NCBI GenBank assembly: GCA_963674745.2
Contig: CAXXDV010000001.1
Coordinates: 256,001-320,000, forward strand
DNA from: Desulfosudaceae bacterium
Lineage (GTDB): Bacteria > Desulfobacterota > Desulfobacteria > Desulfobacterales > Desulfosudaceae
DNA: 64,000 nt
Direction: 5' to 3'
In this document: piece by piece, positions 27,362-30,344 of the stretch
Layout of the letters: the number at the start of each line of letters is the position of its first letter
Position numbering within the stretch: position 1 is the first letter of the stretch
Notes under the pieces: generated by a model
The model's input: the letters and a program-made list of their open reading frames with translations, nothing else
The model's database searches: none
What the model was told of the DNA's origin: nothing
Program-made: the position numbers and the translations under genes

Positions 27362-27451
27362 GGAGAGGTGGCCGAGAGGCTGAAGGCTCCGCTCTCGAAA
27401 AGCGGTATCCTGCTTGCGGGATCGGGGGTTCGAATCCCCCCCTCTCCGCCA
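27362..27451 (+). tRNA. tRNA-Ser(CGA)
   Basis: GGAGAGGTGGCCGAG...CTCGAAA...long variable arm...CCGCCA. Confidence 0.95.
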
Positions 27452-27524: not shown

Positions 27525-29048
27525 CTATTTGTCGTCCGGCTCCGGACACGGCAGGCCGGTCGGATCAACGAAAAGGCGAAACGGCCGTCGGATATGCCAG
27601 TTTTCTCTCAGCGGATCATAATGTCCGATCACCCGGTCTTTTAATATCAGCTTGAAAAAAGATTGCCGCCGCGCCGTAAAGACGAACACGCGCGGCCGGA
27701 ATCCGGGCGGCAGCATTTTCTGAAAAAGTCCGGTATCGGCCAGGCGGTTATAAACAGACCTCACCGGCCACAGGGCAAGGGGCCGGGCAAAGACCCGAAA
27801 CCGGCACCAGGCAGCAATCATTCTTCCCGACCTTCCCCCGGCAACACACCGCCGTCGATTTCTCCGCCGGGCGGACACCACCCGACCCATGACCGCTTCC
27901 GGCTGAACCAGGCCGGGATCTTCCTGACGGTTATTATCACCCCGGGTCCGGATACCCGCCGCTGTTACGCTGATCACACGATGCACCACCGGGCCGGACC
28001 GTTCAGGGCATTGGTAGCAAATGACATCACCGACCTGGACAGGGCCTTTATATGGCAACACCGTCAGCAAATCCGGCTCTCGCAGGGTGGGGTTCATACT
28101 GGGGCCGGTATAGGCAACAAACAGCGTCTCGGCGCTGCTGGCGGAACTGTCTTTGGGTCCTGTCTCTATCGACTGCGCGGGCGGCTGCACCGGCAGATGA
28201 TCGCTCCTGGCAACAGACGGATCCTTATTTTCAAGGACGCGATCGATTTCATTCCAGAAAGCGCCGGTCAGGCTGATGCCAAACCTGAACACCGGAACAG
28301 CCCGCACAAGGTCCTCCACGGCGGTCAATTGCTGTTGATGAAGCGAATGGATTTGGACATCGGTCAGATGGCGCCGCATAGTATGGGATACATGCTGCAC
28401 CACGTCCATGAGCATGGCCGTAGCCGGCGCGGGAGCCAAAGACACGGCGCTGTCTTCCGGTGACCGGGACAGGATAAAGACGCCCCGCAAAGGAACAGGC
28501 CGCTGGACATCCCAGCTGCCGCCGGGCCCGGGAACGCCCTTGTCCGTGTAAAACCGGCTCCAGGTGGGCCAGGCATGCGCCCAATACCGGCCGCTGCGGT
28601 CCCGTACGATCAGGGCGGCGTCATCGCTTAAAGCGCGCCAGGGGTCGGACAGTCGACGACTGGCGGTGGTTTTGCCCACGCCGCCGACACCGGCCAGAAT
28701 AACGCCCTCGCCTTTTGGGTCCGCCACCAGTGCCCCGTGAACCAGCAGGCCGCCGCGGGACTGGATCTCTTGCCCTATGGCCAGGCCGATCTGAAGCATA
28801 CCGCTGGTAAGCAGGTTGACATTCGTAGGTGGCAAAATGGTAATGACGGCCGGTCCGGGCCCGGACAGGTTGGCCGGCGGACTTTCCGCCCGGCCGATGG
28901 TGACCAGCAGTTCCCGCCCCGATGTTCCCGGCTGCAACCGCATGGCCGCACCCAGGGCCTTGACCACGTCCGCAGCCAGCGGATGGCCGGCCCGAATGCA
29001 CCAGCGGGCACCGTCCGCCAGCCGGATCATCATTGGAAATGAGGTCAT
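27525..29048 (-). CDS. ScmC-like (HPr-kinase-like P-loop) protein fused to an S26-family peptidase domain
   Basis: LVHGAL, GVGGVGKTT, LSDD, WPTWS in the N-terminal part; GPSMNPTL...HRV...RGDNN..DP in the C-terminal part; start trimmed to avoid overlap with the precursor gene. Confidence 0.75.
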   Translation of the reverse strand: MTSFPMMIRLADGARWCIRAGHPLAADVVKALGAAMRLQPGTSGRELLVTIGRAESPPANLSGPGPAVITILPPTNVNLLTSGMLQIGLAIGQEIQSRGGLLVHGALVADPKGEGVILAGVGGVGKTTASRRLSDPWRALSDDAALIVRDRSGRYWAHAWPTWSRFYTDKGVPGPGGSWDVQRPVPLRGVFILSRSPEDSAVSLAPAPATAMLMDVVQHVSHTMRRHLTDVQIHSLHQQQLTAVEDLVRAVPVFRFGISLTGAFWNEIDRVLENKDPSVARSDHLPVQPPAQSIETGPKDSSASSAETLFVAYTGPSMNPTLREPDLLTVLPYKGPVQVGDVICYQCPERSGPVVHRVISVTAAGIRTRGDNNRQEDPGLVQPEAVMGRVVSARRRNRRRCVAGGRSGRMIAAWCRFRVFARPLALWPVRSVYNRLADTGLFQKMLPPGFRPRVFVFTARRQSFFKLILKDRVIGHYDPLRENWHIRRPFRLFVDPTGLPCPEPDDK

Positions 29049-29118
29049 TGTTTTATCTGCCGGCGATCGGGCAGTCCGAATGCCCTGCCGAAGGGGATAA
29101 GAAATTGAACCGGAAATT

Positions 29119-29403
29119 TTAAAAACCGCTTCCTGAATTACATTGCCCGCCGGGAAAATTCCCTGATAAACATTGCCCGCCGGCCGCATCTCCTATTTGA
29201 CATTTCGCCCCCGTGGCCGCGTTTCCGGTTTGACATTTACTGGATCCCGGGTTAAAGCCGGTTGAGCAACCGCCTCCCGTGGTATCTCCGGAACCGGGAC
29301 TGCAGGCCCCGGCCCCCTGATCTAAGGCATCCAGCCGGATCGCCCGGGGCGGCTCGTAGGTCAGGCGTTTGTTCTTTTTTGGGGCGGCATCGCTGTCGGT
29401 CAT
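29119..29403 (-). CDS. Putative RiPP precursor peptide (ScmA-like) with a YEPP leader and six CxxG repeats
   Basis: AGAGGAAG RBS-like sequence; leader TYEPPRAIRL; Gly/Ser-rich core with CSPG, CSTG, CQTG, CQIG, CLSG, CNSG. Confidence 0.75.
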   Translation of the reverse strand: MTDSDAAPKKNKRLTYEPPRAIRLDALDQGAGACSPGSGDTTGGGCSTGFNPGSSKCQTGNAATGAKCQIGDAAGGQCLSGNFPGGQCNSGSGF

Positions 29404-29643
29404 CTGACCTGCTTCCTCTCAGATAAAACTTTTATTACCATCGCCGACTTTAGGCAAAGAACCGCTTTTGAGAAGCAATTGGAAAAAACGTTGGTTTGTC
29501 AGCGTATAAAAAAGCTATTATGTCTTCAATATAATAATAAACTAATACATAATACCCGTTCGTCAAACATTTTAACAGCTTTTTCATAAAGATAGACACA
29601 TGCAGCCGCCCTGTGATCACTCTCCGGATTATTAAGGACACCG

Positions 29644-29961
29644 CTAAAAATTGCCTTTGGGCCCGAAATACGTGCCGCCCGCATGCCATTCGAAGCCGAT
29701 AAAACCGTCCGCTGCCAGTTCTTCCAGCATGGAGACGACGTCCTGGGCGGCATTGACCGGCGCATCCGGAAATTGCTTGCTGACCGCGGTGATAATCCCG
29801 GCAACCGTACGCCGGCCGTCCACCAGTTGCCAGACAGCAAAACCCGTATGATTGAGGGCGATGGAGGCGGCCGTGTCCATGTTGACCAGCACGGACTCCC
29901 CATCAGGGAGCCTGTGACAGATGACTGCCGGATTGGCCAGTGGTATTGCCGTCTGTTTCAT
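29644..29961 (-). CDS. PqqD-family RiPP recognition element (ScmD-like)
   Basis: ANPAV...LNHTGFAVWQLVDGRRTV...DVVSMLEELAADGFI, typical PqqD pattern. Confidence 0.85.
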   Translation of the reverse strand: MKQTAIPLANPAVICHRLPDGESVLVNMDTAASIALNHTGFAVWQLVDGRRTVAGIITAVSKQFPDAPVNAAQDVVSMLEELAADGFIGFEWHAGGTYFGPKGNF

Positions 29962-30253: not shown

Positions 30254-30344
30254 GGAGAGATGGCCGAGCTGGCTGAAGGTGCACGACTGGAAATCGTGTG
30301 TGCTGTAACAGGCACCGAGGGTTCGAATCCCTCTCTCTCCGCCA
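30254..30344 (+). tRNA. tRNA-Ser(GGA)
   Basis: GGAGAGATGGCCGAG...CTGGAAA...CTCCGCCA. Confidence 0.95.

Follow-up and report, generated by a model that had tools for sequence, protein, structure and literature searches.

A three-gene SynChlorMet-type cassette in a tRNA-Ser spacer of a Desulfosudaceae bacterium, a probable deletion remnant and possible satellite of a distant radical SAM cluster

We analysed a 64,000-nucleotide stretch of the Desulfosudaceae bacterium assembly GCA_963674745.2 (contig CAXXDV010000001.1, positions 256,001 to 320,000; hereafter the window), in which a small cassette with the appearance of a locus for a ribosomally made peptide with post-translational modifications (RiPP) lies between two tRNA-Ser genes. 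Three minus-strand open reading frames (ORFs) were confirmed there, encoding a RiPP recognition element (RRE), a precursor of 94 amino acids with CxxG repeats, and an ScmC kinase fused to an S26 peptidase. The initial annotation had described the same three co-oriented genes (a PqqD/RRE protein, a 94-residue precursor-like peptide and a P-loop–S26 fusion), and its placement of all three ORFs held. It had also noted the absence of radical S-adenosylmethionine (SAM), lasso cyclase and transporter genes, and in our analysis, too, the interval between the flanking tRNAs was free of ORFs for radical SAM proteins, cyclases or transporters.

The left boundary of the locus is a tRNA-Ser(CGA) gene (27362..27451, plus strand; ARAGORN) and the right boundary a tRNA-Ser(GGA) gene (30254..30344, plus strand), identified by ARAGORN and by empty sites in relatives. 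The pair is separated by 2,802 bp in the source genome, whereas in 5/5 relatives examined the two genes are adjacent and the spacer is empty, with a spacing of 71-96 bp in four of them (G001, G002, G003 and G007) and about 30 bp, as estimated from BLAST coordinates, in the fifth (G009). The cassette is therefore an insertion of approximately 2.8 kb into an otherwise empty tRNA spacer. In the family's 12 other genomes, neither an orthologue of the fusion nor an orthologous insert was found (only 6/13 genomes reach 90% completeness with no more than 5% contamination). The insert contains no integrase, and a target duplication could not be placed, the relatives' spacers aligning to the insert no better than shuffles. 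No relative was found among viral contigs, and the plasmids searched yielded only a partial signal-peptidase match. An assembly artefact was excluded, as short-read contigs from two runs of one sample cross the insert with zero differences; these contigs probably represent the source sample, and the agreement rules out assembly error only. A promoter and terminator scan returned five promoter-like sites against a shuffle mean of 1.9, none of them convincingly positioned upstream of the genes.

The fusion gene (27525..29048, minus strand) encodes an ScmC-family HprK/phosphoenolpyruvate carboxykinase (PEPCK)-like P-loop kinase that continues into a peptidase of family S26 (Sec11/SipW-type) and then a conserved C-terminal domain, an assignment based on the TIGR04249 match, the catalytic residues and a structural model. 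The ORF scored 144.9-146 bits on TIGR04249 (ScmC), above the cut-off of 125, and 49.2 bits on the archaeal-type signal peptidase I model TIGR02228, just under the cut-off of 51.85. The maximal ORF (27525-29189) overlaps the precursor gene by 71 nt, and its start is uncertain, with candidates at 29189, 29048 or 29033. Homologues align only from about residue 48-53 of the maximal ORF, and translation may therefore begin at 29048 or 29033; the 29189 start has a better ribosome-binding signal than the shorter ones. In the numbering of the database form, which has 502 residues, the kinase part spans approximately residues 1-272 and is joined to the peptidase by a disordered linker. The kinase retains H99, the Walker A residues G120-K121-T122 and D137-D138, and the peptidase retains S312, H351, D366 and D372. 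All of these are invariant in a 40-sequence alignment with the exception of T122, in place of which T123 is listed as nearly invariant. A profile of the fusion finds SEC11A/SEC11C structures at E 5e-13, and the AlphaFold2 model (predicted local distance difference test, pLDDT, 83.8) shows two ordered parts connected by a linker, residues 272-300, that falls below 50. Its top Foldseek matches are PEPCKs, the fold family to which HprK kinases belong. The fusion was rejected as a novelty in its own right: 660 proteins of 279-889 residues match at E <= 1e-10, and the best 120 matches, the window protein included, all carry both domains (69 kinase-first, 51 peptidase-first), four of them with an additional C-terminal RRE. 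A scan of genome contigs with the single protein gave one locus.

The ScmA-type precursor gene (29119..29403, minus strand) was identified from a profile of related precursors, a leader score and its ribosome-binding signal, which is good. The peptide consists of a leader containing YEPPRAIRL and a 61-residue core that has six CxxG repeats and contains 8 Ser and 5 Thr. Each of the six core Cys lies in a CxxG motif, with spacings of 12, 11, 11, 10 and 10, a pattern reproduced in 0/20,000 shuffles of the core. Its TIGR04252 score of 14.5 bits is under the cut-off of 35, yet it is the best match in the genome and extends over the whole model, and a profile built on 42 precursors of related (ScmC) loci detects it at E 1e-11. 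The leader scored 36.3 against a median of 28.7. A direct search with the precursor gave one match besides itself. Gly occupies Cys+3 in 71% of 408 repeats, and the residue at Cys+4 of the first repeat is Ser in 45% of 87 precursors and Thr in 12%; the window precursor has Ser there. Only two precursors of this type are present in the genome, that of the cassette and that of a resident cluster described below, and they are 33% identical.

The discrete RRE (29644..29961, minus strand), a PqqD-family protein of 105 amino acids, was assigned to a 'first' or class A type by PF05402, class profiles and a tree. It scored 55 bits on PF05402 (cut-off 23.4), while its best NCBIfam match, ScmD (TIGR04248, 41.1 bits), lies below the cut-off of 100 and leaves it outside the ScmD definition. 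Class profiles trained on 16 'first' (A) and 33 'ScmE/F-adjacent' (B) RREs gave 100.7 bits for class A versus 53.2 for class B, and 4/4 RREs fused to kinase–peptidase proteins were also of class A. The tree agrees with this placement, grouping the window RRE with the fusion P0010 (support 83/80; 93/86 for the clade from which it is excluded). The protein keeps an Asn37/Asp74 pair with the same spacing as N33/D70 of LppB, the two pairs being equated by spacing and not via an LppB alignment. LppB belongs to the linear polyphosphorylated peptide (LPP) pathways of Bacillota (LppA/B/K/S/N/D), and these residues capture YxxP leaders (Popov et al. 2026, PMC13381572). The ribosome-binding signal of the RRE gene is weak.

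Between the RRE and precursor genes lies an AT-rich spacer that is unique in the genome (29404..29628, no strand assigned; 29404-29643 is 38% GC), at the position where related clusters carry a second RRE (RRE-B), ScmE and ScmF. No protein remnants of ScmE, ScmF or RRE-B were detected in the gaps of the cassette, where 246 query proteins gave short chance-level matches only. The spacer is followed by the end fragment of a repeat resembling a miniature inverted-repeat transposable element (MITE) (29629..29666, plus strand; blastn E 1e-6 to 7e-3), a candidate deletion scar. The repeat has 28 matches in the genome, this one included; the 27 other copies run on into the element body, whereas the copy at 29629-29666 stops, and it provides the last codons and the stop of the RRE gene. 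This repeat may have caused the deletion discussed below. The repeat itself is intergenic, about 150 bp long with inverted-repeat-like ends, and also has matches in two relatives (G001 and G002).

The initial annotation had likened the locus to the SynChlorMet (SCM) cassette (NCBIfam TIGR04248-TIGR04252, representing ScmD, ScmC, ScmE, ScmF and ScmA), and this likeness was borne out. The cassette shares with SCM systems an ScmC above cut-off, an ScmD-like PqqD-type RRE, a Cys-repeat precursor and the gene order of the branch with two RREs and a fused kinase–S26 protein. It differs in having no RRE-B, ScmE, ScmF, nucleotidyltransferase or ABC genes in cis, in an RRE and a precursor that score below the ScmD and ScmA cut-offs, and in its tRNA-Ser spacer location and repeat scar. 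In a metagenome scan 417 relatives were confirmed, and locus counts rest on the best 80. The count of radical SAM genes excludes 50 of these, in which less than 3 kb of sequence was available upstream of the kinase. ScmE and/or ScmF were carried by 27 of the 30 informative loci (all except L078, L089 and L091). The order RRE, RRE, ScmE, ScmF, (precursor), kinase–S26 was found at 16 of the best 80 loci, some of which are near-duplicates, so that these counts are not independent. The order in the window, RRE, spacer, precursor, kinase–S26, is this canonical order minus RRE-B, ScmE and ScmF.

A similar picture emerged at the genome level. At E <= 1e-45, ScmE or ScmF was present in 15/16 ScmC-carrying genomes from the relative and class searches and in 12/13 from the phylum search, that is, in 27/29 overall, with both present in 23/29. 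The exceptions are G152, in which the gene lies at a contig edge, and G576, whose ScmC has a degenerate Walker A motif. Given that most ScmC genomes have linked clusters, the figure of 27/29 indicates that ScmC is rarely found without radical SAM enzymes, and not that these enzymes function in trans. Since radical SAM genes are missing from so few orthologous loci, the cassette is best understood by origin as a deletion remnant and not as a minimal type of pathway, and we consider it very probable that it arose by deletion from a horizontally acquired two-RRE SCM cluster. The initial annotation had listed a stand-alone pathway as one of three readings, beside a satellite and a decayed cassette, and had regarded orthologous loci that always include radical SAM genes as the mark of a deletion remnant, which is largely what was observed (27/30 loci, 27/29 genomes). 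Its contrast between a satellite and a decayed cassette does not concern the origin, for which a deletion remnant would serve either way; either description may apply to its present use.

The genome scan for ScmE/ScmF-like genes proposed in the same annotation located them 114 kb away, in a complete resident SCM-type cluster (G000:C1:162048-172811; L006, L007) on the same chromosome, with 114,021 bp between the cassette and ScmE. The cluster comprises a PF14907 nucleotidyltransferase, an RRE–ScmE fusion, a tandem RRE (RRE–RRE), ScmF, a 197-residue HprK-like protein, a paralogous precursor, an S26 peptidase and an ATP-binding cassette (ABC) exporter, and it adjoins an exopolysaccharide locus. 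The resident ScmE and ScmF scored 387 and 367 bits, near the cut-off of 400, and the CxxxCxxC motif and the Cys motifs of SPASM are intact in both. An Asn/Asp pair aligned with Asn37/Asp74 of the window RRE is present in each of the three resident RREs, which score higher as 'adjacent' than as 'first' (88.8/52.6, 53.6/33.0 and, marginally, 32.4/28.4). In a tree, the ScmFs of window-like clusters form the sister group of the resident ScmF, with an SH-like support of 100. Two identical GIY-YIG-like ORFs of 101 residues were also observed in repeated DNA between the resident nucleotidyltransferase and ScmE (170101-171313). In addition, a third cassette (L008, G000:C3:1929833-1934103) contains an RRE of a different type, a radical SAM protein, a kinase, an S26 peptidase and a nucleotidyltransferase, so the genome has three S26/kinase RiPP modules.

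The retained RRE, kinase and peptidase match the core of the LPP pathways and the Asn37/Asp74 pair is conserved; by sequence, the retained genes are therefore an LPP-like core. Common to both systems are the combination of RRE, kinase and peptidase, with a discrete RRE, a YxxP leader, an HprK-like kinase and a leader peptidase resembling archaeal-type signal peptidases, as well as a Ser/His/Asp triad in both peptidases with a Ser-His spacing of 39. The supplementary domain table of PMC13381572 lists TIGR04249 for 67 LPP neighbourhoods, while TIGR04250, PF04055 and SPASM are absent from the six supplementary files searched, and SCM systems, in contrast, normally have two radical SAM/SPASM enzymes. 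The cassette further differs from LPP loci in that its kinase and peptidase are fused and its core bears six CxxG repeats. It shares only YxxP with the LPP leader consensus YxxPxVLxHQxIxFETxxS and is without the HQxIxFETxxS part. The nucleoside triphosphate (NTP) transferase and MsbA-like transporter of LPP loci are absent from the insert, and both are present at the distant resident locus. We read the cassette as a deletion-derived satellite of the SCM family that would act like an LPP core in cis, and not as a member of the LPP group.

Based on these data, we propose that the cassette is a deletion-derived satellite whose precursor is modified by its own kinase and peptidase in cis and cross-linked in trans. 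The RRE would bind the YxxP leader of the precursor, the fused kinase would phosphorylate a Ser or Thr of the core, and the S26 domain would remove the leader in an RRE-dependent manner, each step being modelled on LPP biochemistry (PMC13381572). Cys cross-linking and export would be supplied by the resident ScmE/ScmF/ABC cluster 114 kb away. As a best guess, drawn from the repeat pattern and from analogy with PapB, the bonds may be Cys-to-carbon thioethers at or near the residue following CxxG. We put the probability of this whole mechanism at roughly 0.45, a little short of even odds.

The PapB analogy derives from the PapA/PapB (freyrasin) ranthipeptide system, in which thioethers between Cys and Asp or between Cys and Glu are reported to be made by a radical SAM/SPASM enzyme that depends on an RRE (PMC9413430, PMC10739248). 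A repeated Cys motif in the precursor is common to that system and the cassette, as an analogy only, but the cassette CxxG is followed mostly by Gly, Ser, Thr or Asn and not by Asp, and against the PapB model, whose cut-off is 340 bits, the resident ScmE reached only 80 bits and the resident ScmF 56. PapB systems are not known to include a kinase. The pattern of repeats may point to a Cys-carbon thioether of the ranthipeptide or sactipeptide type. With regard to lasso peptides of the paeninodin type, none of the three cassette proteins matched the macrolactam cyclase or B2 cysteine peptidase families, the genome elsewhere not having been searched for a cyclase, and the cassette peptidase is of the S26 and not the B2 cysteine type.

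Several observations bear on whether SCM parts may act at a distance. In one genome (G737), precursor–kinase–S26, RRE–ScmF and ScmE occupy three contigs; neither the 7.7 kb that follow ScmF nor the flanks of ScmE, about 7-8 kb either way, contain further parts. Another genome (G649) has a lone ScmC. At L106 two precursor/kinase–peptidase modules (59% identical) occur in tandem with no radical SAM gene between them, and apparently such a tandem is also present at L047. In structure prediction, the complex of the resident ScmD RRE with the window leader scored 0.59 versus 0.00 for the best control, with runs agreeing in at least 98% of contacts and a partner pLDDT of at least 55. The mark applied was attained by 51/78 solved pairs and 2/108 mismatched pairs, but at scores of 0.60 or lower it was passed by only 5/78 solved pairs and by all 4 passing mismatches of 180. 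The prediction thus lends weak support to binding of the window leader by the resident ScmD RRE, and may reflect likeness to solved RRE-leader complexes.

A number of results weigh against the proposed mechanism. The supports in the RRE tree (83/80 and 93/86) are below the starred level, and one locus (L059) swaps the classes, with a class B RRE before the kinase and a class A RRE before ScmF. No other locus examined combines the order RRE–precursor–kinase–S26 with a lack of radical SAM genes, and the assemblies of G737 and G649 are fragmented (460 and 210 contigs). The relative G003 has a resident-type unit (ScmE 89% and ScmF 79% identical) with no ScmC above cut-off, which implies that the resident cluster does not need the satellite. 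The window kinase is 63% identical to that of its nearest linked cluster, L034, and in locus pairs whose kinases are 58-70% identical (n=28) the ScmFs share 71-87% identity. Between the resident ScmF and that of L034 the identity is only 53%, so the cassette derives from a different cluster, and the resident enzymes are, on this calibration, not its original partners or cognates. The resident precursor leader is divergent as well, scoring 7.7 versus 36.3 bits on a profile biased towards the clade of the window. RREs can discriminate between similar leaders; FusB1, however, was promiscuous (PMC13381572).

The strongest rival shares this origin and departs from the proposed mechanism in present use: the cassette could be a silent or early-decaying remnant that has yielded no useful product since the radical SAM genes were lost and has not yet accumulated frameshifts. 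We regard this as possible, though less likely than the satellite. The non-cognate resident enzymes, the divergent resident leader, an architecture unique among the loci examined and the weak ribosome-binding signal of the RRE gene all favour it, as does the ScmC with a degenerate Walker A motif in G576, a genome without ScmE or ScmF. It is also favoured by the kinase domain, which deviates at 9/97 highly conserved columns, joint worst among the 40 sequences, and which at its strictest columns shows 7 changes versus 0 for the nearest relative (p 0.016 without correction, in one of several splits); these data are compatible with a kinase in early decay. However, none of the three frames is interrupted, the checked catalytic residues are retained, and the S26 and tail domains show 0 deviations at conserved columns. 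Against its 70%-identical nearest relative, the fusion has 20 versus 24 private changes (p 0.65), with no overall increase in rate and no frameshift. The retention of six CxxG repeats and a near-consensus leader also argues against silence.

A further alternative is that the resident ScmE and ScmF ignore the precursor and that a pathway like that of LPP operates in cis alone, giving a leaderless phosphorylated peptide that is linear or disulfide-bonded; this appears rather improbable. The retained set corresponds to the LPP core, which has been reported to phosphorylate and cleave without a radical SAM enzyme (PMC13381572), and the six Cys could give three disulfides after export. Kinase–peptidase loci with wide flanks and no radical SAM gene do exist (3/30), but they were seen at the locus level and not genome-wide, while 27/29 ScmC genomes hold ScmE or ScmF and the two exceptions involve a contig-edge gene and a degenerate one. 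There is, moreover, no transporter in cis, and the LPP leader motif is absent from the precursor. Fission of the resident cluster, with the cassette as its missing ScmC part relocated on the chromosome, is largely refuted and very unlikely: the window gene is the only ScmC above cut-off in the genome and the resident kinase is short (197 amino acids, 16.6 bits), but a kinase, an S26 peptidase and a precursor are already present at the resident locus, which G003 preserves as a unit, the calibration of kinase against ScmF identity rejects shared descent, the S26 domains are only about 30% identical, and GC at third codon positions (GC3) is 0.69 versus 0.40-0.60 for most resident genes.

It is conceivable, although we consider it doubtful, that SCM systems are modular and genome-distributed, with a precursor-specific, LPP-like module (class A RRE, precursor, kinase–peptidase) detaching from the radical SAM module (class B RRE, ScmE, ScmF) and plugging in trans into a non-cognate resident set. 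Were this so, the retention of just three genes would provide a cell with an additional cross-linked phosphopeptide, one RRE would serve phosphorylation and cleavage and the other cross-linking, and a single pathway family would include both LPP and SCM as its forms. The cassette and the resident cluster together offer a test case for RiPP enzymes that act across clusters on a non-cognate leader, a question raised by Popov et al. for LPP and lasso peptides (PMC13381572). The cassette can be viewed as a natural dissection of the pathway that isolates the RRE–kinase–peptidase unit, and its three genes suffice to probe the roles of ScmC and S26, so that nature has provided a minimal test system. 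Should the cassette prove to be no more than a decaying remnant, its value is limited to the comparative picture. Our literature search, with subscription journals and bioRxiv supplements outside its range, yielded no publication in which the SCM family or its models are named, and PMC12710340 contains none of six SCM-related terms. Within this literature, the cassette is likely a new variant of a named but apparently unstudied family that is widespread in anaerobe genomes and metagenomes.

Several of the related loci have features of their own. Two clusters (L126 in G133 and L127 in G190) have RRE–ScmF–kinase–S26 without an adjacent ScmE; G133, which is 95% complete, has no ScmE match at all, and G190 has a second cluster elsewhere. 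Two other SCM loci (L116 in G247 and L149 in G576) are apparently decaying, with ScmF interrupted by stops in G247, and a degenerate Walker A motif in ScmC and no ScmE or ScmF in G576. At L091 (423-4618), four precursors are interleaved with repeated opposite-strand alpha/beta-hydrolase-like ORFs upstream of the kinase–S26 fusion, and the 12 kb there lack an intact radical SAM gene; at L046 (6973-9916) two ScmF-like frames and five precursors lie upstream of one kinase–S26 fusion. Unusual precursors were also noted: at L099 (4093-5018) a precursor-like leader and Cys repeats are joined to a long C-terminal extension, in a frame open to the contig end, and at L148 (13905-14390, G663) a long Gly-Thr dipeptide repeat precedes the Cys repeats. 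Finally, SCM parts were repeatedly found beside exopolysaccharide export genes (L078, L089, L142 and L006), as in LPP and paeninodin clusters.

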